Source: a virus
Lineage: Duplodnaviria; Heunggongvirae; Uroviricota; Caudoviricetes
IMG/VR virus record: IMGVR_UViG_3300006226_000014
Location: 1-24,803 of that record
Length of the DNA: 24,803 bases
Direction: 5' to 3' (one strand)
Shown: piece by piece, positions 9,372-24,803 of the stretch
Numbering within the stretch: the stretch's first letter is position 1
Layout of the letters: each line of letters opens with the position of its first letter
Translations under genes and position numbers: made by a program
Notes under the pieces: generated by a model
What the model was told of the DNA's origin: nothing
Database searches by the model: none
Seen by the model: only the letters and a program-made list of their open reading frames with translations

Positions 9372-9695
9372 ATGCAAAAACTTATAGATTATCTAAAAAC
9401 GCGTGGCTTAAAAGAATCTGATTATTCTTACACCCGTGCGGGAAATCTGAACTTCGCCATTGATGGTAGACAGTTTCAGTTTTCAAAAACCGGTTATTTC
9501 AGAGCTAAGGCTGACCGTAGCAAGCCTCGCGGAGCTTGGAAAGTTCGTCCCTTCCGCAATTCACCCTGGTCTCGTCATTCATTGTGCGGTTATCAGTGGT
9601 ACCTGGTTTTCAAGGTGACAGAAAATGGTTGGGGCCGGTGCCCTACATTTACTGAAGATACTCTTATTGAGCGTCTGAAGCATTACAATTTCTAA
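9372..9695 (+). CDS. Small basic, aromatic-rich hypothetical protein; only credible plus-strand gene
   Basis: 107-aa ORF occupying a gap between minus-strand genes, with its own promoter, SD and terminator; visibly more GC-rich with frequent CGT/CGC Arg codons. Confidence 0.85.
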   Translation: MQKLIDYLKTRGLKESDYSYTRAGNLNFAIDGRQFQFSKTGYFRAKADRSKPRGAWKVRPFRNSPWSRHSLCGYQWYLVFKVTENGWGRCPTFTEDTLIERLKHYNF

Positions 9696-12411: not shown

Positions 12412-13449
12412 TTAGTTGGACATAAAGTTAGCTAACGGAATGTCAAGAGCAGAGTAGTCAACTGCGTAACCTATATCTTCCATAGATGCAACTGTGAACT
12501 TACTAACAAAACTATTAGTAGTTGTAGTATAGTTCATGAGTTCATTATAGAATGGTCCATTAGGATCAGCTCCTGGTGCTCTGAAGCCCCAATGAGACAA
12601 CGCACTACCACCAGCATTTTGTACAGTTGCAACAGGATTAGTAGAAGGATGTATCGGTATGAACATCTGTAAATCATAAGTTGCTTCATCATAAGCAGCT
12701 AAACCTTGTGGACCTATATATTTTGGATCGATTGGTGAACCTATTCCGATATTATTAGAATTGGGATTAATTCCAGAACTTAAAACGGGACCAAATCCTA
12801 AAAGAGTAACTAATAAGTTCCATGGAAAAACATTAGCATTGGCTATTAAGTCAGGAAGAGAAGTTGTGCCCGCAGGCCCTGTTATTAATCGGAAGTTTCC
12901 ATTCCATAATGCACCAAAACCTAAGACATGAAATAGTTCATGAAGTGCAGTATAGAAAAAACGTTGTTGTGGGTTTCCTATAGGATGACATTGTGAACAA
13001 GAACAAAACTTAATAGAGCCAGACTTTACTGTGATATAATTTTCGTAAATATCTATCGCATCAAATGTTTGTAAAATTTCGCTTATATCTATATTGCCGT
13101 TAAAGTTAGTAGCCATATTTCCAGGACCACCCTGACCAGAAAAATGATTCTCACCAAAAATAAGCTGATCAAAAGTTACTTTAACTGGAATTGTTCGTTG
13201 TTCTGAAGAGTAATTAACGCCAGTAATAATCTGTTCTAAAAAATTTACAGCATCATAAAGCCAAGTTTCATATAACGATCCCTTATATTCATTTGGAATC
13301 TCAGTTATGTCTAAATCTATCTTAAAATTAGTTTGAGCTGGGCTTGTCTTATATATTTGATATGCTACATTTTTTGTTCCAGAGGCTAATAGTTCTAAAG
13401 TATGTCGCTTTAATCGTCCATTATTGTCTTTTTTGAATATAGAGTCCAT
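12412..13449 (-). CDS. Leishmanolysin-like (peptidase M8 / metzincin) zinc metalloprotease
   Basis: HELFH (HExxH, 12928-12942) in HELFHVLGFG, distal SHW third ligand (GGSALSHW), Met-turn NELM, C-terminal T.ASMEDIGY; no signal peptide visible. Confidence 0.85.
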   Translation of the reverse strand: MDSIFKKDNNGRLKRHTLELLASGTKNVAYQIYKTSPAQTNFKIDLDITEIPNEYKGSLYETWLYDAVNFLEQIITGVNYSSEQRTIPVKVTFDQLIFGENHFSGQGGPGNMATNFNGNIDISEILQTFDAIDIYENYITVKSGSIKFCSCSQCHPIGNPQQRFFYTALHELFHVLGFGALWNGNFRLITGPAGTTSLPDLIANANVFPWNLLVTLLGFGPVLSSGINPNSNNIGIGSPIDPKYIGPQGLAAYDEATYDLQMFIPIHPSTNPVATVQNAGGSALSHWGFRAPGADPNGPFYNELMNYTTTTNSFVSKFTVASMEDIGYAVDYSALDIPLANFMSN

Positions 13450-13986: not shown

Positions 13987-14964
13987 TTATGATCCTTGTA
14001 ATGGAGGTGAAATAGCCTGCATTAAATTAGAATCTGGATATGGATCATTACTAACCCACATTGTAAAAAAGCTTATAGTATTTGATTGATTAGATAAACC
14101 ATTAACACTGCTTGTACTAATAAGAGATGCTGTTTGATCACCTGGATTTCTAGCAGCAATTGATATATTAAGAGTTCCACCAGCACTTTGATTAACAATA
14201 GTCCCCATAAGACCTACTTGAAAATCCGGTCTGAATCCATAGGGTACTGAGCCTAGAGGTTGAAGTGTGCCACCACAAGTTCTAGAATGCATAAATACAC
14301 ATATGTTACCAAATCTTAATACTATAGCAGTACCATTCCACGTACCGCCACCTACAATTGGACCAACTGCAATTTTAGAAAGATCATTCATAAAACTTTC
14401 AATATCGGGTTTATTCTTAATATAACCAGGATCATTTACGTCTGTTTCATTCCAATCACTTTGAGTGCCAACAGGACCGCCTATAATTGGCTTATTTTTA
14501 ATAAAAGCTGGATGATTTAAATCTGCATTATTCCAATCAGATTGAACTTGTTCAGGTAATGCATGATAATGATCTGATCTAGCAAAAGTTGTGGCCGAGC
14601 CATCTTCTTTAACTTGTCCAAATTCTGCTTGTTGATCAGTTAAATTACCTGCTTCTGGAATAGCTGGTATATTTGGTAAAGCATGATAATGATCAGATCT
14701 AGCAAATGTTTCTAATGTACCATTTTGAGCTGATTGACCAAAATCAGCTGCTTGACTACTTAATACTGCCGGCTCAACAGCAGGGGGTATTGTTGGCTTA
14801 TTAGCAATGTAAGCCGGTCCAGAAGATGCATTCCAGTCAGATTGAACTTGAGTTGGTATGTCTTCTTGTGTTATAAAATTAGCAATTTCTTCTCTAGTTA
14901 CTACTTCTTGAGGATCATTATCTTTTACTTTTCTATGTATAGTTTCAAAATATTCTTTAGCCAC
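13987..14964 (-). CDS. Tail fibre/appendage-like protein with QSDWN...IxNKP and FARSDHYHALP repeats
   Basis: Three QSDWN...(Y/F)I(A/K)NKP units and two FARSDHYHALP units; GTG start with AGGAG SD overlapping the upstream stop; small beta-rich C-terminal domain. Confidence 0.75.
   Translation of the reverse strand: MAKEYFETIHRKVKDNDPQEVVTREEIANFITQEDIPTQVQSDWNASSGPAYIANKPTIPPAVEPAVLSSQAADFGQSAQNGTLETFARSDHYHALPNIPAIPEAGNLTDQQAEFGQVKEDGSATTFARSDHYHALPEQVQSDWNNADLNHPAFIKNKPIIGGPVGTQSDWNETDVNDPGYIKNKPDIESFMNDLSKIAVGPIVGGGTWNGTAIVLRFGNICVFMHSRTCGGTLQPLGSVPYGFRPDFQVGLMGTIVNQSAGGTLNISIAARNPGDQTASLISTSSVNGLSNQSNTISFFTMWVSNDPYPDSNLMQAISPPLQGS
14561..14706. repeat. Intragenic direct repeat (120-bp period) encoding FARSDHYHAL
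   Basis: gcatgataatgatc(t/a)gatctagcaaa at 14561-14586 and 14681-14706; 25 of 26 nt identical. Confidence 0.85.
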
Positions 14965-15430
14965 GTTCTTCTCCTACAACTATTATAGTATATGTTCCTG
15001 GAATTGGATTATTCGGAACTCCTAATGGATCAAGAGTTACCTCTCCAGCGTCTAAAGTAAAGCTGCTGCTTAGTCCATTAAATTCACCACCATCTTCTAA
15101 GTGTACAATTACTTTTGGAAATATCTCAGTTCTTTCATAAGTAGTTGGGTCATTATCTTCTCTATAAACATGTACTGAAAAGTATTTTTCAAAATAAATT
15201 TCATAATTCTCAATATCTTTAAATTCTAAATTTATTATCCAACGTAAATTGTCTTCAATAAAGGACTGACCTTCAAAAATTACTCTTTGGAGAGGTGTAA
15301 AGGCTTTCTTGAGAAATTTAGGCTTATTCTTAATAAATGCAAGACTTTTAGGATTATTTTCATTCCAATCAGATTTTACACTTACATCAGCAATTTTTAT
15401 TTTTTTACCATTTTTTACAGCAAAAATCAT
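14957..15430 (-). CDS. Small fibre-associated/adaptor-like protein
   Basis: 157 aa; N-terminus MIFAVKNGKKIKIADVS shared with the two upstream genes; one SDWNE...FIKNKP unit shared with the downstream gene; SD AAGGAG. Confidence 0.75.
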   Translation of the reverse strand: MIFAVKNGKKIKIADVSVKSDWNENNPKSLAFIKNKPKFLKKAFTPLQRVIFEGQSFIEDNLRWIINLEFKDIENYEIYFEKYFSVHVYREDNDPTTYERTEIFPKVIVHLEDGGEFNGLSSSFTLDAGEVTLDPLGVPNNPIPGTYTIIVVGEERG

Positions 15431-15453
15431 TTAAACTCCTTAGGTAATATTTA

Positions 15454-16257
15454 TTAACCATTTTCTTGATTTGAAGGTCCTAGTGATTCTATAACTGCAT
15501 CTTCTAAATCTATATAAAATCCTTCTTTCCAGTCAACTGTTGCATATTCATAATAAGATTTTGGCATATCAAATATAAGTCCTTCGGCCGGAGATACACT
15601 ATGTTTTAAGTTAGCGGGGTTAACTGTCGTATTAATTTTAACTGAAATTTCATTATTTTCAATTTTAATACTATCACCAGCAGTATAAACATCTATAAGG
15701 TCAGAGACATCACCAGCTGTTGAATTATATTGACCATGAGCATCTTTATGAACAACTACTAAAAATATTTTATTTACAGTACTACCTGGTTCCATCACAC
15801 CAGATAAAAGATGAGATACATCAGGTTCACCATACTCTGATTTATATTCAGTTGGCCATTGAAAACCATCACTTGGGTCAGTTGGATCAGTTTTTTTCCA
15901 AGATACTAATCCCATCCATTCAATCTGTGATTCTAAATCTAGTTCAATATAACTAATAGCTTTTGACTGTTCTTTTCCAAAAAGTCCTATTCTATTTTTT
16001 GAAGAATCATATTTTAAGCTTAATGTAGTAGATAATACATTTCCTGTCCAATCTAAAACTTTATCTTCACCAACACCAAATTGGAATTTATTATTATCAA
16101 TATAATCTTTAATTGTTGTTGTAGCACCTGGTTTTCCGCCAATTATAAGATTTTCACCATGAAGTTTTATCTCGCCAACTTCACCATTAACAGATTTAAC
16201 TTTGCTAACATCTGCTATTAATATTTTTTTTCCGTTATATACTTTAAAAATTGCCAT
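15454..16257 (-). CDS. Fibre/appendage protein, short paralogue of 16312-17907
   Basis: 267 aa; MAIFKVYNGKKILIAD N-terminus, EDKVLDW...LSLKY...LFGK block and DVYTAGDSIKIENNEISVKI block, all with counterparts in the 531-aa neighbour. Confidence 0.78.
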   Translation of the reverse strand: MAIFKVYNGKKILIADVSKVKSVNGEVGEIKLHGENLIIGGKPGATTTIKDYIDNNKFQFGVGEDKVLDWTGNVLSTTLSLKYDSSKNRIGLFGKEQSKAISYIELDLESQIEWMGLVSWKKTDPTDPSDGFQWPTEYKSEYGEPDVSHLLSGVMEPGSTVNKIFLVVVHKDAHGQYNSTAGDVSDLIDVYTAGDSIKIENNEISVKINTTVNPANLKHSVSPAEGLIFDMPKSYYEYATVDWKEGFYIDLEDAVIESLGPSNQENG

Positions 16258-16279
16258 TTATTTTCTCCTTATACTTTTA

Positions 16280-16304
16280 AGGGAGAAGAGGTTTTCTTCT
16301 CCCT
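16280..16304. other. Perfect 10-bp intergenic stem-loop lacking a clear minus-strand U-tract
   Basis: AGGGAGAAGA (16280-16289), 5-nt loop, TCTTCTCCCT (16295-16304); followed on the minus strand by TAAAAGT and then the next SD. Confidence 0.65.
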
Positions 16305-16311
16305 AATTATT

Positions 16312-17907
16312 TTAGTTTTCTACATCAAATGTAATTGAAGTTGTTGCAACTTTATTTGCACCTTCAGTTTTTCTATTACCACCAGCTTTCTTTATGTCCC
16401 AAAGTTCCCAAGTTATTTTGTATTGTCCAGCCTCTTGTGGTGTAAAGAATAAGAACACACTATCAAGTACTGGTCTATCTTCTGTATTGCTATAAGCAGC
16501 ATTTTGTCCGCCACCAACAGCGCCCCAATTATCATAGTCACCAGCATTATTAAGAACAGAATATTGATTTTTTGGATTTGGAGGGCCCATATTAGAGAAT
16601 AATGTTGCATTGAGTTCTTCTCCATATTTACCATCGTCTAATCTTTCACATTTAATAAATGTTTTAGCAAATTTATCTTTCATATAATCAGTATCATCTA
16701 AATTGATACGTGGGGTCATACGTGCCCAGATTGCACATTCATTACCAACAGTTGCTGGTTCAGTTGAAGTTGCTTTAGAAGTATCATAACCATACCAACC
16801 AGTTGCTTCTGAAGTATCATCTTGCGCCGCGAAAAACTTTGTAAAAGCAAAATGAAGAATATTGTATTCACTTCCGTCTTCTATAACGAAGTAAACTCCG
16901 TCATTAGCTTTATTGCTTCCAACACTATTAAATTCATTAGCAGTACCTGTCCAGAATTCTAAAAGAAGTCCATCTTCGCTTACTGAAATTCCTTTTTCTG
17001 AGTCTGGATCAATTTTTACACCAATTTCACGTTGAATAATTTCAATACCGTCACCAGCTGTATAATCTTCAATTATTTCAGAAAGATTAGCAAATGAATA
17101 TTGAACATCGTCATCTGCATCTTTAAAACCTAAGATAAGATATTGACCATCTGCATTGCCAGATCCGAAAGCAGTAATAATTTCGGCTTTCTTAATTATA
17201 TCAGTTTCTGTAATTTCGGATAAATCTAAATTGTTGCTAGTACTTTTTACTATTTCATTTAGAACAAGAGCTGAGCCCAATATTAAATCAAATTCACTTA
17301 CTACCTGTTTGTTTTTACCAAGTAATTGAACTTTATTATTTGCATAAACGAGACTTAAATGGGATTTAAGTTTTGGATCTCCGCCTTCTGTTTTTGCGGA
17401 CCATGTTAAAACTTTTTCATTTGCACTTAATTGTGTTTTAGCTAGTAATTCCGAGACATCTTCTGTAAGATCATTATTAATAACAAATTTACTTAATATT
17501 TTAGATCCAGGGTATCGAGGATCCTCTACTCTTTCAAAAGAAATTCCTTCTCCTGCTTCAATATCAAAAGTTTCTTGAGTAGGTCCTTTTTTTAGTCCGT
17601 CTAAATCACTAAAAAATTGTGCTACCCTTACTACGTCATCATTAGTAACATCAGTAATAGTAGGAACTATAGCTGTTACTAATCTTTTGACTCCGTCTGT
17701 ATCTGATGCTCTGATATCTTCATAATTTATTTTTCCATCAATTTCTGATTTTATAAAATAAGTTTTGTCAGTGCTGTCGTAATAAATATTACTAGCGTCC
17801 AAATCAATATTTTTGTCGCTTTCAGCTGATATCCCATTAATTGTTTCGAGCTTATTAATTTCTGCGAATAATCTCTTTTCACCATTAATAATTCTAAAAA
17901 TTGCCAT
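16312..17907 (-). CDS. Fibre/appendage protein (531 aa) with distinct C-terminal beta domain
   Basis: MAIFRIINGEKRLFAE N-terminus; YTAGDGIEI...GVKIDPDSEKGISVSEDGL fibre-type motif; FWTGTANEF...DGVYFV motif; acidic composition; SD AAGGAG. Confidence 0.78.
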   Translation of the reverse strand: MAIFRIINGEKRLFAEINKLETINGISAESDKNIDLDASNIYYDSTDKTYFIKSEIDGKINYEDIRASDTDGVKRLVTAIVPTITDVTNDDVVRVAQFFSDLDGLKKGPTQETFDIEAGEGISFERVEDPRYPGSKILSKFVINNDLTEDVSELLAKTQLSANEKVLTWSAKTEGGDPKLKSHLSLVYANNKVQLLGKNKQVVSEFDLILGSALVLNEIVKSTSNNLDLSEITETDIIKKAEIITAFGSGNADGQYLILGFKDADDDVQYSFANLSEIIEDYTAGDGIEIIQREIGVKIDPDSEKGISVSEDGLLLEFWTGTANEFNSVGSNKANDGVYFVIEDGSEYNILHFAFTKFFAAQDDTSEATGWYGYDTSKATSTEPATVGNECAIWARMTPRINLDDTDYMKDKFAKTFIKCERLDDGKYGEELNATLFSNMGPPNPKNQYSVLNNAGDYDNWGAVGGGQNAAYSNTEDRPVLDSVFLFFTPQEAGQYKITWELWDIKKAGGNRKTEGANKVATTSITFDVEN

Positions 17908-17933
17908 TTAAATCTCCTTATTTATTTAGTATT

Positions 17934-18530
17934 TTATTTCACATAATATGTCCCATCAAAAGAAGAGACACCCTTTTCTATGTTTTTAAGAATTTCGTCA
18001 TTAAATTTCTTATATGATCCAGTCCAAGCTTCTGGCTGTCTATCACCATATTGATTTATAGTCATTTTAGAGCCATCTGGATTTGTATATTTAAAACCAG
18101 GTGCATTCGAAGCAAAATGTGTATCACCAGCCACTTCTTGAATTTTCTGACGAATTGGACCATGAGCATTTTCATCTGCATTGTGTGCTGTTAGATCAAA
18201 TTCTGGAATTTCTGGTTGATATAGTACTGGCTGTGGAATAAAAGCTGGGGTTGTAATCATCCAAGGTGGCTCGGATAAGTATTCTGTTTTTGGTTCTTGA
18301 TAATCATCTATAAACCAATATTCAGCTGGCTCTCCATTACCGTTATCTCTTACTACAAATTTTAAGCCCTTAGCTCTTAAACCAGGAGAAAGATGACCTG
18401 CTATTCGTAAATCTTCGGGACTTGTTTCTGGTCCACAAGCTTCATCTAAGTTTTCAAAATATGTTTTAGTATCAAGAGGTTTTGGCTGTGTAATCCAATA
18501 ACCGCTATTTAATTCACTTCCTATTGCCAT
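17934..18530 (-). CDS. Short fibre/adaptor-like protein sharing its N-terminal module with the 1323-aa protein
   Basis: 198 aa; KPLDTKTYFENLDEA...GLKFVVRD...EYWF matches RPIDGKTIFENLEEA...GLKFTVKD...EYWF; AHNADENAH and WTGS...DGTYYV fibre-type motifs. Confidence 0.78.
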   Translation of the reverse strand: MAIGSELNSGYWITQPKPLDTKTYFENLDEACGPETSPEDLRIAGHLSPGLRAKGLKFVVRDNGNGEPAEYWFIDDYQEPKTEYLSEPPWMITTPAFIPQPVLYQPEIPEFDLTAHNADENAHGPIRQKIQEVAGDTHFASNAPGFKYTNPDGSKMTINQYGDRQPEAWTGSYKKFNDEILKNIEKGVSSFDGTYYVK

Positions 18531-18544
18531 TTATTTTTCTCCTA

Positions 18545-21500
18545 TTAATTAGTAAATTCAAACGTATATGCTATGTTTGGTAGTGGAGTTCCTATTGGTC
18601 TATCTTTTAATTTATAAATATAATAATTATCAACACCATTATTATCAATAGACGTTGAAAATTTATCCCATTCATGATTTTTTGGTACTCCACCAATATC
18701 TTTTATTTGAAATATATCCATACTCTGTGGACATACAAATATTAAATCACCTATTATATTTGTAAATAAGTGATTTTCAATATTATTAGCAACTGCAGGA
18801 TCGATTGTTACTTTTTGTTTTATATATCCATTTTCTAATAAATTAAGTGGCGATCCTACTGCTGTTGGTATAAACCCAGGACTAATACTACCTTCTAAAA
18901 GCCCCGCGATTCTATTAATATCTCGTAATGGATCAAATATTGCTCCAGTTACTTGATCTGGATTAGCAAAATCAATATTACCCGGCATATAAAGTGCGCC
19001 TTCTGGAATAAATTCACCATACCATATTTTTTCAGCTGGTTGTGGGAATACTAATGTAAATTGATCAGTGTCTTCTCCAAAATCATCATCAATATCATAA
19101 ACTTCAACTTTTACATTATAAGTTTTGCTCTGATTTAATCCATTAAATGTTGCAACAATATATAGTCCATCATCATTTAAGAACTGTGATACATTAATAG
19201 TTTCCATTTCTAAATCATCTAAATAAACTTTAGCTTCTTTTAAAGCGCAAGAACCTTTTGTTATATCAGCTTTTATGCTAACACTAAATGGTGCAATATG
19301 TTCTCCATTAACTTTCGCTGCCTCAATATCTGTAGTAACAGTAACTTCAACAGTTGGTAAAGTTATTACAGTATATGTGGCATATATATCCAAGTTACTT
19401 GTAACATTAGAATAGTCCTTATCCCAGCTATCAAAATGATAGCCATTTTTAGTTGGATCTTCAGGAGGAATTGCTGCACTACCATGATTGACTGTTTGAC
19501 CAGCTTTAATAACAGTAACTTTATCATCATCATAGAATGTTACAGTATATTTATTGATAACCCATTCAGCATATAAGTCTAAATTAGATGTAATTGGAGT
19601 AGTAGTAAAAGTAAATTGATTAGTAAAAGTTTCATCATCTAAATACCACCCATTAAGTGTATAACCAGTTTTATTTGGATTATGTGCTGTTGCAGTTTGT
19701 AAATATTCTACTGGTTCAGTATAAACTATTACACCTTCTATCCAGAAATTAACATTATATTCATTTATTTCCCAATCAGCAACTAATGTAATGTCTCCAG
19801 TAATAGGTGTAGAGAAATTAAATGAACTTTCATTTAAAGTCCATCCGCTATTCTGTAAATGATAACCAGTTTTTGTAGGAGCTGGATCAGGTATAGTTGC
19901 AGTTGCATTCCAATTTACAGTTTGAGATGGTGGAGTAATATTTCCACCATCTGAATTAAAAGTTACTGTAAATGTTTTTATAGCATATTGAGCCTTAATA
20001 ATTATATTTTCTTCAATATTATTATAAGATTTATCCCAACCATTTGGATCATATCCTTCTCTATTTGGATGAGATGGCGGAATTGCATTATTTCCATGAT
20101 CAATATATTGTATATCAATGGGTGGCGTATTTATATCATCTGTATAATCCCAACCAACAAATTTTACTTCATAATTATTTATTTCATATTCAGCATAAAT
20201 ATCATTTTCGGCGGGAAGTGGCTCTAATTGACTATAATCAAAATTACCAGATTCTATATAATCCCAATTATCTGTTTTATGCCAACCTTCTTTATCAGTT
20301 ATTGATGGAGGACTTGGTTCATCTCCGTATTCTACTGTTTCATCTCCAATTATTATATACTTATTAGTATCATTATCCCAGCCCCAATAATTTATTTTAT
20401 ATTGTAATTTAACATATTCACCATATAAAGTTATTTCACCTGCAATAGGTGTATTAAAATTAAATTTAGGAGGAGTTAGTCCGCTATTATCATACCAACC
20501 ATTAAAGTTATGGCCTTCAATATCTTCTGGATAGATTTCAGCTGCAGTAGAATTTTCAACTACACTTTGAGCTAAATCATTCTCTATTCCTTCGCCATAG
20601 TCAAAATAGACTTTATATCTAGGAGCACTAATTTCTTCTACCCAATAGAGTTGGCATCCGCTTATTGTATCTATTGTTTTGTTTGTTACAGAAAATTTAA
20701 GTGTGAATACACCATCATTTTCTGTCATATTACTGATTACATCAGCTGGATCTTGAACATTATATCCATATAATTTAAATATATCACCAATGGATTCCAT
20801 TGTGAGAGTTTTGAAATGTCCGCTTATAGCTAAGTTTGTTAATTTTTCTAATGAAATAAGTTTTTCATCATCATTAATGCTTAAACCAGACACGTGGCCG
20901 CTTACTATAATAGCGTCAATGTCTTCAAGATAATCATGTTCGTGGTTGCCCTCTGCAACAGTTCCAGCAATATCACCAAACTCTTTATTAAATGCGCTAT
21001 TCTTACTAAAAGCTTTCTCAGCACCAATAGCTTCTGGAGTTACTCTAATGTTTCCAGCATTGAAAGGAGCAGGATCTTCGCCTAATGCAACTTTAGTTCC
21101 AGCTGGAATAATATGCGTGTGTTGTGTTACTACATTTTCTTCACCTAAAGGCTCTTTAGCCCACTGTGGGACTGTTGGATCTTCTTCTTCTGTTAAATAT
21201 TCATGACTATGATTACCAGCTGCTGCAGTTGTTCCAGTTGTTCCAATTTGTAAAAATGCTGGCTTATTAGTAATTTCATCCCATGCATGATCATGATCTT
21301 CTAGTTCATAAGGATCAGGAGTATCTTCAATTTCTCCATAATTATATGTTGGCTTATTTTCTGCTTTTGCCCAAGGTGATACATCTTTAGCATTTCTATC
21401 ATCAGAAAGTCTAGAATCCCCTTCTTCTATATAGTTGCCTATTGGTTGATAATCATGTGTATGTTGTGACGCTTTAGTCCCATTTAAGCTTTCTTTTGCC

Positions 21501-22516
21501 CATGACGGCACAGTTGGATCTGTTTCTGTAAATGATTGTAGTGCTGTATCTGCTTTGCTTAAACTATTTTGAACAGATTCAGCTAAATCACCTTTTGGTA
21601 TGCCATCAGCTGGTTTATCATATTTTGCATCCCAATCAGATTTATTTTGTAAAGTAACATGTATATCATTATTTGTAAAATGATCATGAGTATGATTACT
21701 TAAAGCATAATTACCCAAATCTTCAATATCTGATTCAGTATGAGTATGAGGGCCTGTAACATGTGTATGACCAGCTGGAGAAGCACCTATATTTTCAGGA
21801 GTAATTAATATCGATTTATTTACTGAAGCATTAGCACTAAAAGTATCATTTAATGTTAAACCACTAATAGTTAATGTCGCATCATTTGGTATAGTATCAT
21901 TATCAACAAGGCCTGAAATAGCTTCTCTTAACTCACTATCATCATAAATAGTATCATTATCTATTATTCCTGAAATAGCTTCTCTTAATTCTGAATCATC
22001 ATATATTGTATCACTGTCTATTAAACCAGAAATAGCTTGCCGTAATTCGCTATCATCATATCGCATATTATCAGCACTAATTACATTATCAACTATAGAT
22101 ATATTATCGCCACCCGTATATGTTGTATCATTATCAGTTAATTTCGATATTTCAGTGTTAGTATAATCTTTAGCATCTTGTAAAGCTTGACTAATTTCAG
22201 GTTCCCAATCTTTTCCCTCTATAGCTTCTGGAAGATAAACTTGTGGTTCTGGTATAATTTCAGGACTAATAATTGTAACCCAGTCATCACCCAATTCTTC
22301 TGGCTTATAATCTTGTGTAAACCAATATTCACGAGGACCAGGATGATCATTTGCTGTATCATCTTTTACTGTAAATTTTAAACCAGTAAATCTTAAAGTT
22401 TTTATAATATCTGCTTTAGCTTCTTCTAAATTTTCAAAAATAGTTTTACCATCTATTGGTCTATTAGTTGTAGGCCAAAAACTATCTCCAAAATTTATTG
22501 ATCCTTGTTTTGCCAT
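18545..22516 (-). CDS. Large fibre/adhesin-like virion protein (1323 aa): N-terminal module, acidic repeats, HxH-rich shaft, about six Listeria-Bacteroides (InlB-B/Flg_new-type) repeats, Ig-like domain, C-terminal domain
   Basis: Repeats with YxVxF...P.K.GY.F.GW...F.F.TPI.....LYA.W pattern at about 19370-20620; eight HxH motifs at about 20931-21780; YDDSELREAISG repeats; C-terminal domain paralogous to 22529-24544. Confidence 0.85.
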   Translation of the reverse strand: MAKQGSINFGDSFWPTTNRPIDGKTIFENLEEAKADIIKTLRFTGLKFTVKDDTANDHPGPREYWFTQDYKPEELGDDWVTIISPEIIPEPQVYLPEAIEGKDWEPEISQALQDAKDYTNTEISKLTDNDTTYTGGDNISIVDNVISADNMRYDDSELRQAISGLIDSDTIYDDSELREAISGIIDNDTIYDDSELREAISGLVDNDTIPNDATLTISGLTLNDTFSANASVNKSILITPENIGASPAGHTHVTGPHTHTESDIEDLGNYALSNHTHDHFTNNDIHVTLQNKSDWDAKYDKPADGIPKGDLAESVQNSLSKADTALQSFTETDPTVPSWAKESLNGTKASQHTHDYQPIGNYIEEGDSRLSDDRNAKDVSPWAKAENKPTYNYGEIEDTPDPYELEDHDHAWDEITNKPAFLQIGTTGTTAAAGNHSHEYLTEEEDPTVPQWAKEPLGEENVVTQHTHIIPAGTKVALGEDPAPFNAGNIRVTPEAIGAEKAFSKNSAFNKEFGDIAGTVAEGNHEHDYLEDIDAIIVSGHVSGLSINDDEKLISLEKLTNLAISGHFKTLTMESIGDIFKLYGYNVQDPADVISNMTENDGVFTLKFSVTNKTIDTISGCQLYWVEEISAPRYKVYFDYGEGIENDLAQSVVENSTAAEIYPEDIEGHNFNGWYDNSGLTPPKFNFNTPIAGEITLYGEYVKLQYKINYWGWDNDTNKYIIIGDETVEYGDEPSPPSITDKEGWHKTDNWDYIESGNFDYSQLEPLPAENDIYAEYEINNYEVKFVGWDYTDDINTPPIDIQYIDHGNNAIPPSHPNREGYDPNGWDKSYNNIEENIIIKAQYAIKTFTVTFNSDGGNITPPSQTVNWNATATIPDPAPTKTGYHLQNSGWTLNESSFNFSTPITGDITLVADWEINEYNVNFWIEGVIVYTEPVEYLQTATAHNPNKTGYTLNGWYLDDETFTNQFTFTTTPITSNLDLYAEWVINKYTVTFYDDDKVTVIKAGQTVNHGSAAIPPEDPTKNGYHFDSWDKDYSNVTSNLDIYATYTVITLPTVEVTVTTDIEAAKVNGEHIAPFSVSIKADITKGSCALKEAKVYLDDLEMETINVSQFLNDDGLYIVATFNGLNQSKTYNVKVEVYDIDDDFGEDTDQFTLVFPQPAEKIWYGEFIPEGALYMPGNIDFANPDQVTGAIFDPLRDINRIAGLLEGSISPGFIPTAVGSPLNLLENGYIKQKVTIDPAVANNIENHLFTNIIGDLIFVCPQSMDIFQIKDIGGVPKNHEWDKFSTSIDNNGVDNYYIYKLKDRPIGTPLPNIAYTFEFTN
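21891..22062. repeat. Three tandem 57-bp (19-aa) coding repeats YDDSELR(E/Q)AISG(L/I)(I/V)D(S/N)DTI
   Basis: cc(t/a)gaaatagctt cores at 21912, 21969 and 22026 (57-nt period), in frame within the 1323-aa gene. Confidence 0.9.
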
Positions 22517-22528
22517 GCTTTATCTCCT

Positions 22529-24544
22529 TTATTTATAAAATACATTTAATGTATATTCTGGACTTGATTGAAATACACCGCCTGCATTTGAAAAAATGTA
22601 CATATAATAATTCATTCCATCTATATTAGTATTAAAAGATCTACTGTCAAAACTCATTGGAGTAGTACCAGCTTCAAAATGGTCAACTTCAAAAGGTGTA
22701 ATAAATACCACCCAAGATATTCCATCTAAATAAATTGGTGTTTTTTGAGTTGCTACGGACTCTTCTGTTAATTTTAAGTATCCATCAGGATATTGTTCAA
22801 ATTGGTTACCAACAGCACCTACTAAGTTCATTACTCCATTTTGACCATTTTTTATATAATCAATAAGTAAATCTTCAAGTTGTTGTGCATCATAAGTACC
22901 AAAATTTGTACCAACAAATGTACCTGGAGTAACATTAGGATTATAAACTGATCCAGGAAGAAAATATTCACCATAAAAAAGTTTTCCAACAACTACATTT
23001 GCCTCCATTTTTGCCCAGATTGTAATCGGACCAGTAATGGGTGTAGAAAAGCTCCATGCTGTAGTACAAGCTTTATCTGAATACCATCCACCAAAATCAT
23101 ACCCACTTGGAGGTGTTGGATTACCCGGATCAGATACTGTATTATTATAGTTAACTGAAGTTGATGAAATTGGTGTATCATCTTCCCAAGCAAATGTAAC
23201 TGTATAAGAATTAATGTTCCATCCAGCATAAATTGTAGTATTAGCTTTTATTTGAGTTCCAAAATTAAATGGAGTTGTTAATGCACTAGTTGTAAACCAG
23301 CCTTCAAAGGTATAACCTGTTTTTCCGCTTGCTGGGCCAGGATTAGTTACATTTCCATTATAGTTAACTGTTTGTGATCCAATAGCAGAGCCCCCATCAA
23401 CATCAAATGATACAGTAAATTGTTGTATATCAAATTTACCATATATTGTTGTGTCATTAGTAATGAAAGTATCAAAATCAAATAGAGTTGTAAATGCATT
23501 ATCTTCAAACCATCCGCCAAAATCATAGCCTTCTAATCCAAGATCACCTGGATCACTTACTGTATTTCCATTAGATACGAATATTGTCCAATTTTCTTGA
23601 GTAACCCAAGAACCAAAGGTGCCAACATCGAAGGTAATGCTTCTCATTGCAACACCTTTAGGAGCCCAATAGAGTAGATTATCTTTTACTTGTTTCTGTC
23701 CGCCAACTTCTTCTAATTCAAATTCTAATACATAAGGACCAACTGCTTCACCAAAAATCTCTTTTGGATCTTGCACTCTATATCCATAAAGTGTCATGTG
23801 ATCATTAACGCGTAAATTATCTATGCTTGCTCTTTCAAAGAAGCCACGAGTTGCAATTAAGCGTTCTTCTATATTTACATCACCATTAGTAACATTTATT
23901 CCATCTTGAGCAGTAAGTAATCCAGATATTGTAGCAATACCTTCTAAGGTAGTATTACCACCAACATTTAAGTCACTATCAATATCAACAATACCTCTAA
24001 AATTAGAATCACCAAGTACTAATACAGAACCAGTAATGTCTAATCCATCATTACTTGTTATTTTACCAGTAACAACAAGTGTTCCACCCATTGTAGTATT
24101 ATCATCTACATTTAATGTTCCGCTAATAGTTGCATTACCATTAACTTCTAATCTTTTAGTTATTACTGCAGTTATATATCTGATATCAACTGGCCATTGT
24201 ACACTATAAGTATTGGTATCAGCATTATAGCTATTTAATTCTCTAACAGTAAAGCTTTCAAGATAATTCTCTGAGTCCCTGTTTTCTATTACATCATATT
24301 TCCAACCAGCCTTAACTGCTATTGATGAAAATTGATATCGAGTATCTATAATTCTTAAATCATTTTGACTAAAATCATAGCCCAAAGAATATGATGGTAA
24401 TGGAACACTTAAGTCTAACTTATCGTCATCTTCTAATGACAGTATTAGTTGTCTATCATTTTTAGGATCAATGAAAATCTTAAATTGTAAATCCTCAATT
24501 ACTGCAACATGATTGCGGCCTGCTTCTGTTATCTTATAACTCAT
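22529..24544 (-). CDS. Fibre/adhesin-like virion protein (671 aa) with beta-repeat shaft and three Listeria-Bacteroides repeats
   Basis: Short beta repeats (LEVNGNATISGTLNVDDNTTMGGTLVVTG...), LYGYRVQDP linker, three xxTF...P.P..GY.F.GWF/Y repeats (about 23000-23650), C-terminal domain paralogous to the 1323-aa protein; SD AAGGAG. Confidence 0.85.
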   Translation of the reverse strand: MSYKITEAGRNHVAVIEDLQFKIFIDPKNDRQLILSLEDDDKLDLSVPLPSYSLGYDFSQNDLRIIDTRYQFSSIAVKAGWKYDVIENRDSENYLESFTVRELNSYNADTNTYSVQWPVDIRYITAVITKRLEVNGNATISGTLNVDDNTTMGGTLVVTGKITSNDGLDITGSVLVLGDSNFRGIVDIDSDLNVGGNTTLEGIATISGLLTAQDGINVTNGDVNIEERLIATRGFFERASIDNLRVNDHMTLYGYRVQDPKEIFGEAVGPYVLEFELEEVGGQKQVKDNLLYWAPKGVAMRSITFDVGTFGSWVTQENWTIFVSNGNTVSDPGDLGLEGYDFGGWFEDNAFTTLFDFDTFITNDTTIYGKFDIQQFTVSFDVDGGSAIGSQTVNYNGNVTNPGPASGKTGYTFEGWFTTSALTTPFNFGTQIKANTTIYAGWNINSYTVTFAWEDDTPISSTSVNYNNTVSDPGNPTPPSGYDFGGWYSDKACTTAWSFSTPITGPITIWAKMEANVVVGKLFYGEYFLPGSVYNPNVTPGTFVGTNFGTYDAQQLEDLLIDYIKNGQNGVMNLVGAVGNQFEQYPDGYLKLTEESVATQKTPIYLDGISWVVFITPFEVDHFEAGTTPMSFDSRSFNTNIDGMNYYMYIFSNAGGVFQSSPEYTLNVFYK

Positions 24545-24555
24545 TTACTTGCTCC

Positions 24556-24803
24556 TTATATCTTTTTAGATTTAACATCTATTTCTACATCATTATATGG
24601 CATGTTAAATGTAAATCTTGTAATGCCATCTGAAGGATCACCTGGCCACATAACGAAGTTTGGTAAATCTTGTATTTCAGCTAATGTCTCATCACTAATA
24701 GTATATCCATTTGTAAAGTTCAAATATGGTTGAAGAACTTTATCAGCTTGATGTCGTGATTCAAACGTTGAGTCTGTTCCACCAATTAGGCCTGGGATGT
24801 TAC
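24556..24803 (-). CDS. C-terminal fragment of an upstream structural gene (start outside window); absent from the ORF track
   Basis: Manual translation from 24801: NIPGLIGGTDSTFESRHQADKVLQPYLNFTNGYTISDETLAEIQDLPNFVMWPGDPSDGITRFTFNMPYNDVEIDVKSKKI-stop(24558-24556); FTFNMPYNDVEI resembles the end of divergent InlB-B repeats. Confidence 0.75.
   Translation of the reverse strand, partial: NIPGLIGGTDSTFESRHQADKVLQPYLNFTNGYTISDETLAEIQDLPNFVMWPGDPSDGITRFTFNMPYNDVEIDVKSKKI

Follow-up and report, generated by a model that had tools for sequence, protein, structure and literature searches.

A putative multi-fibre gene set of an uncultured jumbo phage with modules shared between neighbouring genes

Organization of the gene cluster

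The cluster described here consists of seven consecutive open reading frames (ORFs) of a tailed bacteriophage, located in a stretch of 24,803 nucleotides (nt), referred to as the window, which comprises bases 1–24803 of the 108,437-bp IMG/VR record IMGVR_UViG_3300006226_000014. The source phage is an uncultured jumbo myovirus, for which the CheckV completeness of the record (~33 %) implies a genome of roughly 300 kb. The seven ORFs encode proteins of 671, 1323, 198, 531, 267, 157 and 325 amino acids (aa), by whose lengths they are named below, and lie between a gene encoding a 1682-aa protein and the baseplate wedge and sheath genes. An earlier note on this DNA presented them as a daisy chain of fibre genes, each sharing a module with the next; its coordinates and protein lengths proved to be exact, and the minus-strand location of all seven genes was confirmed. 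The order of transcription is 1682, 671, 1323, 198, 531, 267, 157, 325, a 141-aa gene, a 345-aa gene whose product contains an HExxH motif, and the gene for an 877-aa baseplate wedge protein (phrog_219 match, 6e-14), after which further tail genes, including one for a 908-aa sheath-like protein, follow on the same strand. Between positions 342 and 29604 of the full record, all genes of at least 80 codons are located on the minus strand, with the exception of a 107-codon plus-strand ORF (9372–9695) and a few overlapping ones, and AGGAG-type ribosome sites are present at all seven genes of the cluster. The position of these genes, their repeats, weak PHROG tail-fibre matches and the presence of B-repeats suggest that all seven products are fibre proteins.

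The 671-aa fibre gene (22529–24544, on the minus strand, as are all genes and domains given below) encodes an N-terminal region of its own (~210 aa), an LYGYRVQDP linker at aa 252, three InlB B-repeats (Flg_new; aa 303–513, positions 23006–23638) and a C-terminal domain (aa 506–671, positions 22532–23005), which was delimited by alignment and a hidden Markov model (HMM; BLASTP 7e-4). The 1323-aa long fibre gene (18545–22516) begins with an N-terminal domain, termed domain A (aa 1–110, positions 22187–22516), and continues with three 19-aa tandem repeats, a shaft containing HxH motifs, an LYGYNVQDP linker, six B-repeats (aa 632–1052, positions 19361–20623) and the C-terminal domain common to 671 (aa 1151–1323, positions 18548–19066). 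The B-repeats of the two proteins are 30–49 % identical to one another and match Pfam Flg_new (PF09479) with 129.3 bits in 671 (E 5.8e-38) and 121.9 bits in 1323, above the gathering score of 27 bits, while an InlB B-repeat was also matched in the PDB (E 1.8e-4). The tandem repeats of 1323, three copies of a 57-nt unit encoding DDSELREAISG(L/I)(I/V)DNDTIY (window 21871–22060), are found just past domain A; they look like a coiled or spacer segment, and their copy number could vary. The shaft contains eight HxH motifs (aa 250–530, window 20900–21780), a type of motif that is involved in metal binding in the fibre shafts of T4 gp37 and gp12.

The short 198-aa protein (17934–18530) consists of domain A (aa 1–110) and a short C-terminal part, which ends in a sequence designated the T motif, in this protein W..F...DG.YYV. 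In both 1323 and 198, domain A extends for ~100 aa from residue 1 and is followed by W...P..IP.P..Y.P (BLASTP 2e-13).

The 531-aa (16312–17907) and 267-aa (15454–16257) fibre genes belong to a single family, whose parts occur in the order peptide B, a variable stretch, the R unit and the T motif. Peptide B has the consensus MAIFRI.NG.K.L.A.V.K...NG, the R unit is defined by KVL...LSL.Y...LLGK ... DVYTAGDGI.I..N.ISVKID, and the T motif of this family (..EF......DG.Y.V) is located at or near the C-terminus. In 531, these parts occupy aa 1–28, 164–300 and 319–341, respectively, and are followed by an extra C-terminal domain (aa 345–531); in 267, peptide B spans aa 1–25 and the R unit aa 63–207, and the protein has a T-like C-terminal end. 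HMMs of peptide B and the R unit that were built only from the proteins of other phages, and then run on this genome, recovered both parts in 531 (6e-17 and 1e-26) and in 267 (2e-12 and 1e-27). The 54-nt spacer between the two genes contains an 11-bp GC-rich hairpin (AGGGAGAAGAGG/TTT/CTTCTCCCT, window 16280–16304) with a T-run only on the plus strand, where no gene terminates; in the minus-strand transcript, it may serve RNA stability or attenuation.

The 157-aa protein (14957–15430) combines peptide B (aa 1–17) with one SDWN..IKNKP motif (aa 20–37) and a C-terminal domain that is weakly like a beta-sandwich, with Protein Atlas structure matches reaching a TM score of only ~0.4. The 325-aa gene (13987–14964) has a GTG start, overlaps the end of the 157-aa gene by 8 nt and matches the tail fiber family phrog_9729 (3e-4); in its product, three SDWN..I.NKP and two SDHYHALP motifs are combined with a C-terminal domain. 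The SDWN..IKNKP motif is present once in 157 and three times in 325, and the SDWN/HYH region of 325 has matches among the fibre or tail-pin genes of several cultured phages. Two HxH motifs are located within the SDHYHALP sequences of 325 (window 14555–14710). A Pfam search at E values of up to 10 returned nothing for 325, 157 or P0023, a protein of a related phage described below, and the Protein Atlas matches PTR, Phage_fiber_rpt and Mtd_N, which were under or near 0.9, were kept as leads only.

Sharing of modules between neighbours

Eleven proteins of the cluster were scored pairwise by the Smith–Waterman (SW) algorithm against 100 shuffles, and small family alignments were compared profile to profile by hhalign. 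The similarity between 671 and 1323 (SW p 3e-15, hhalign E 2.7e-10) encompasses the LYGY.VQDP linker, which occurs only in these two proteins, the B-repeats and the C-terminal domain, while that between 1323 and 198 (p 1e-11, E 7e-12) covers their N-terminal 100–110 residues. The 531 and 267 proteins are related along residues 1–345 and 1–254, respectively, a stretch that begins with the common N-terminal peptide of 25 aa, includes the KVL unit and the YTAGD motif and ends just beyond the T motif (p 6e-6, E 1.6e-33). The first 17–20 residues only are common to 267 and 157 (p 0.004, E 1.7e-5), and the SDWN..IKNKP motif connects 157 to 325 (p 2e-5, E 1.9e-4). The remaining link proposed in the earlier note, a short C-terminal motif of the WTG..F...DG.Y.V type in 198 and 531, did not withstand pairwise comparison (p 0.17, BLAST E 4) and was marginal by profile, with E values of 0.039 and 0.09 and the motifs in register; HMMs of the T motif failed to retrieve 198 (E at least 0.8) and found its homologues only at E 1–1.6, at their C-termini.

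Within the seven genes, five of the six adjacent pairs had p<0.01 by shuffling, compared with none of the 15 non-adjacent pairs (Fisher p 3e-4). When all 119 ORFs of the record were compared by BLASTP, the fibre-gene matches at E<0.01 were confined to three adjacent pairs (671–1323, 1323–198 and 531–267). The daisy-chain pattern is real for five of the six links and clearly non-random. In the comparison of profiles, five of the adjacent links were significant, and the only non-neighbouring pair to be connected was 531–157 (E 0.003, via the common N-terminal peptide). Loose motifs are also present in 1323, namely YTGGD..I..N.I, which resembles the motif of 531 and 267, degenerate forms of W..NKP, and HxH. 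Because of the 531–157 link and the loose motifs in 1323, the chain is not strictly linear.

Conservation in related phages and age of the duplications

Three independent relatives were found (G001, L008 and L009). G001 is a 198-kb viral record, and the same phage is present on a 295,676-bp metagenome contig; IMG/VR labels the record as a provirus, although the same phage is on the 296-kb contig. The baseplate and sheath-like proteins of G001 have 59 % and 67 % identity, respectively, to those of the phage studied here. Beside its baseplate genes, G001 encodes a 2218-aa homologue of the 1682-aa protein and an 805-aa protein related to the first 210 aa of 671 (28 % identical), and these, together with a small divergent gene, form a block that is inverted relative to the baseplate genes and followed by three unrelated genes. 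A second cluster, ~100 kb away, encodes proteins of 1117 (with B-repeats), 179, 572, 345, 294, 68 and 895 aa. In this cluster, the 1117-aa protein corresponds to both 671 and 1323 through the B-repeat region, the 179-aa protein to 198 (same position, C-terminal half only, weak at E 0.028), the 572-aa and 345-aa proteins, in order, to 531 and 267, the 294-aa protein to 157 via peptide B followed by an ANW...ILNKP motif, and the 895-aa protein to 325 via the HYHALP region. The G001 genes that correspond to 1323 through to 325 thus lie ~100 kb from its baseplate genes, and they adjoin nucleotide-metabolism-like genes. At least two arrangements therefore exist among these phages, of which the contiguous array in the window is one. 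A suspected presence of the 1323/671 C-terminal domain in the 294-aa protein of G001 (SW p 0.0025) was rejected, as the HMM of this domain did not confirm it.

The L008 locus encodes, in order, a 1538-aa B-repeat fibre, homologues of 198 (226 aa) and 531 (553 aa) and an unrelated protein. In L009, a long fibre whose C-terminus is of the 1323 type is followed by a homologue of 198 (154 aa) and then by P0023, which resembles 157 in having peptide B at its start and the SDWN motif after it. The C-terminal domain of ~165 aa is common to 671, 1323 and the long fibre of L009. In two other phages, the genes of the 198 homologues P0002 and P0003 immediately follow those of long B-repeat fibres, and domain A is retained in the long and the short partner in three phages, so that the pairing of a long fibre with a downstream short protein that copies its N-terminal domain has been kept in all three. 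Comparison of 198 with longer proteins, a search with residues 1–120 of 1323 and a profile scan of viral contigs revealed no new domain A proteins. Eleven proteins, which represent at least four phages, have peptide B starting at residue 1–2; it heads the homologues P0005, P0006, P0010, P0011, P0014, P0017 and P0022, which belong to at least three other phages. The 267-aa protein has 19 homologues among 1.8 billion representatives; neither the baseplate protein nor 531 was matched in the cultured phage collection. Tandem copies of the R unit occur in the unrelated long fibre-like proteins P0007 and P0009, and the SDWN/HYH region recurs in fibre or tail-pin genes of cultured phages; both are therefore generic shaft material.

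A maximum-likelihood tree of the 531/267 family contains two clades (support 96/98), of which one comprises 531, the 572-aa protein of G001 and the 553-aa protein of L008, and the other 267 and the 345-aa protein of G001. Since each clade holds one gene each from the phage studied here and from G001, the duplication that generated 531 and 267 predates the split of these phages. The shared modules are ~70 % identical at the DNA level over stretches of at most 77 nt, and recent gene conversion is therefore ruled out. The serial duplication proposed in the earlier note is supported by the clades, the common gene order and the level of DNA identity, but it is ancient. The distal parts have been lost or replaced: orthologues of 531 lack its 190-aa C-terminal domain, the similarity of 157 to the 294-aa protein of G001 is limited to ~30 residues, and 671 and the 805-aa protein of G001 share only the N-terminal 210 residues. 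The shuffling suggested earlier is thus supported for the outer parts in a qualitative sense, as orthologues keep the N-terminal modules while their distal domains are different or gone.

A probable multi-fibre set with putative N-terminal docking modules

The homologies between the proteins, their restriction to neighbours, the conserved gene order and the age of the duplications are established by the comparisons described above. The explanation considered probable is that the region is a conserved multi-fibre host-recognition gene set, which arose by ancient tandem duplications and in which N-terminal docking adaptors are combined with swappable outer parts. According to this explanation, several different fibre proteins would be encoded in one late, same-strand cluster beside the baseplate genes, and the genes would have arisen by ancient tandem duplications, some of them partial, with their order fixed since then; similarity would be found between neighbours because the duplications were in tandem. 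The parts retained between paralogues and between phages are mainly N-terminal, namely domain A (100 aa) on 1323 and 198 and peptide B, a predicted beta-hairpin of 20–28 aa, on 531, 267 and 157. By analogy with characterized systems, the most likely role of domain A and peptide B is that of docking adaptors, through which fibres with different outer parts would be anchored at identical or equivalent positions of the baseplate or of another fibre. The receptor specificity would be set by these outer parts, which differ between paralogues and relatives and comprise the B-repeats with the C-terminal domain, the extra domain at the C-terminus of 531 and, in 157 and 325, the C-terminal domains.

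Several points weigh against this explanation. Conservation was assessed in few genomes (the three independent relatives), and domain A is missing from the G001 proteins that occupy the positions of 1323 and 198, so the pairing of long and short proteins by this domain is not universal. The match of peptide B in 157 to the HMM built from other phages is weak (E 0.04). No T4 gp10-like (XD) branching domain was detected in the seven proteins or the 1682-aa protein by Pfam, PHROGs and PDB sequence searches, a negative result that holds at the sequence level only, since domains of this type are usually found by structure comparison and the models were poor; the same three kinds of search identified no docking partner for domain A or peptide B. 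The AlphaFold2 monomer models had an overall pLDDT (predicted local distance difference test) of 57 for 198, with ~70–84 in domain A, and 50 for 267, in which peptide B is predicted as a beta-hairpin and which was too poor to be searched; a Foldseek search of the 198 model against the PDB yielded nothing below E 0.9, and hence no structural match for domain A. Moreover, the location of the proteins in the virion, their docking function and their trimeric state are inferred. A complex prediction with three copies of 198 and three copies of the first 60 residues of 267 gave a score of 0.02 and, having been run without controls, is evidence neither way.

The gene order might instead reflect a physical chain, the main idea of the earlier note, in which the matched modules would interact with one another or be joined end to end and the order of the genes would be the order of assembly in a branched or segmented fibre. 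In T4, genes 34–37 are an example of neighbouring genes that encode adjoining segments of a fibre. At four loci, a short protein ending in the T motif is consistently placed after the long B-repeat fibre and before the fibres with peptide B, and most members of the peptide-B family themselves end in the T motif. Such a chain is nevertheless unlikely, as the T-motif link is not statistically significant, proteins with both peptide B and the T motif would self-polymerize, and in the characterized branched systems the homologous N-terminal modules dock on a different, common partner domain and not on each other (PMC6872550, PMC10253068). In its most specific form, 198 would use domain A to sit in the socket of the long fibre, and its C-terminal T motif would carry the interchangeable peptide-B fibres (531, 267 and 157), the order of the genes again being that of assembly. 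This is quite improbable, but, if true, several fibre types would be built on one anchor by a kind of modular joint that has not been described before and has no relation to gp10-like domains. A further alternative is that 198 is not a structural fibre but an assembly chaperone or cap for the 1323 fibre. Tail-fibre assembly genes are usually located directly downstream of the long fibre gene, as the small 198-type gene is in three phages. Chaperone-cap partners of fibres have been described (PMC10579305). This role appears very unlikely given that 198 matches no known chaperone family in Pfam or PHROGs and copies the N-terminus of the fibre, whereas known chaperones act on C-terminal parts.

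The shared modules could also be an evolutionary residue only, i.e. generic fibre-shaft material spread by tandem duplication with no common docking role, each protein attaching, or not, in its own way. The R unit and the YTAGD, SDWN..NKP and HxH motifs do occur in many unrelated long fibres, some of them in tandem, and B-repeats are widespread surface modules. This possibility is also regarded as unlikely, since the best-conserved parts are exactly N-terminal (peptide B from residue 1–2, domain A from residue 1) and were kept while the rest was replaced; such position and retention are the signature of attachment modules. Least favoured is a fast-evolving diversification cassette, in which recent gene conversion or shuffling between neighbours would create host-range variants; the earlier note had proposed an array that diversifies adsorption. 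The content of the array does vary among relatives and distal domains have been replaced, but the limited DNA identity of the shared modules and a paralogue split older than the divergence of the phages argue against such a cassette, and active diversification is contradicted by the conservation of gene order even in the relative whose baseplate protein is 59 % identical. The assumption that neither a diversity-generating retroelement nor an invertase is involved is consistent with the lack of any RVT_1 or Resolvase match in the 108-kb record, although this absence, holding only for a fragment that is ~33 % complete, is a weak argument; the inverted repeats found were only short ones with at most 82 % complementarity. 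A cassette of this kind is thus extremely improbable.

Comparison with characterized fibre systems

The proposed conserved set with N-terminal adaptors has parallels in CBA120, RaK2/phiK64-1, G7C and KP32, in which conserved N-terminal domains or peptides organize multi-fibre complexes; RaK2/phiK64-1 has nine fibre proteins with conserved N-terminal domains, and in Klebsiella phages a conserved N-terminal docking peptide is found on secondary receptor-binding proteins (PMC6872550, PMC10253068). The branched complexes formed by TSP1–4 of CBA120 and gp526–534 of RaK2/phiK64-1 (PMC10253068) and that of phiKp24 (PMC9700779) are likewise encoded by consecutive fibre or spike genes of large or jumbo myoviruses, and they likewise combine N-terminal domains that are conserved, also between related phages, with variable outer parts. 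In contrast, no beta-helix depolymerase, gp10-like (XD) or D1-type head domains were detectable by sequence in the cluster described here, domain A and peptide B are without known relatives, the outer parts contain InlB B-repeats, and the assembly into a complex is putative. In the anchor-branch systems of G7C (gp63.1/gp66), KP32 and K1-5/SP6 (PMC6872550, PMC13352976), the same short N-terminal peptide, conserved among related phages, is carried by several fibres that vary in the rest of their sequence. Peptide B behaves in the same manner (HMM 6e-17, 2e-12 and 0.04 in 531, 267 and 157), although its sequence is unrelated and it is carried by three paralogues in one phage of a different morphotype.

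The cluster also resembles the T4 long tail fibre genes 34–37, which are adjacent, same-strand late genes with repeated shaft motifs and, as in gp37 and gp12, HxH motifs; however, no sequence homology was detected, and the T4 segments join by non-homologous ends, whereas the parts shared here are N-terminal. The Listeria–Bacteroides repeat (InlB B-repeat, PF09479) provides another parallel, with three Flg_new repeats in 671, six in 1323 and a PDB match to internalin B, but in this case the repeats are placed within a phage fibre, between the shaft and a novel C-terminal domain.

Other features of the locus

The 1682-aa gene at the head of the cluster is represented in the window by its 3' end (24556–24803) and extends to 29604 in the full record (L010:57-5105, minus strand). 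Its product has no Pfam, PHROG or PDB match, and a similarity to 671 (SW p 0.005) was rejected after profiles failed to confirm it (E 0.64). ACTAAnTAwT boxes are present on the minus strand at window positions 18553, 13460 and 8725 and at 29635 in the full record; the 1682-aa and 198-aa genes are each preceded by a box, which in the latter case falls within the end of the 1323-aa gene, and boxes directly abut the ATG of the 345-aa gene and of a 400-aa gene. In a scan for sigma-70 promoters and terminators, sites were no commoner than in shuffles. The 345-aa HExxH protein (12412–13449), encoded between the fibre genes and the baseplate wedge gene, has a sub-threshold match to Peptidase_M8 (leishmanolysin; E 0.008, 15 bits against a cut-off of 21), and G001 has an unrelated 223-aa gene at this position.

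Conclusions

Giant uncultured phages often have many fibre genes of unclear organization. The best reading of the cluster, by analogy, is that it follows an already described principle, in which conserved attachment ends are combined with swappable outer ends. Its apparent differences from known systems, judged by sequence comparison, are modules unrelated to those described before, outer parts made of B-repeats and a short copy of the N-terminus of the long fibre. The array reveals no new mechanism of diversification; rather, the principle of conserved attachment and swappable ends would extend to a lineage without detectable gp10-like domains or depolymerases. Domain A and peptide B, as two new N-terminal modules, together with the recurrent R unit and the T motif, can serve as sequence handles to identify and classify receptor-binding genes in metagenomic jumbo phages.

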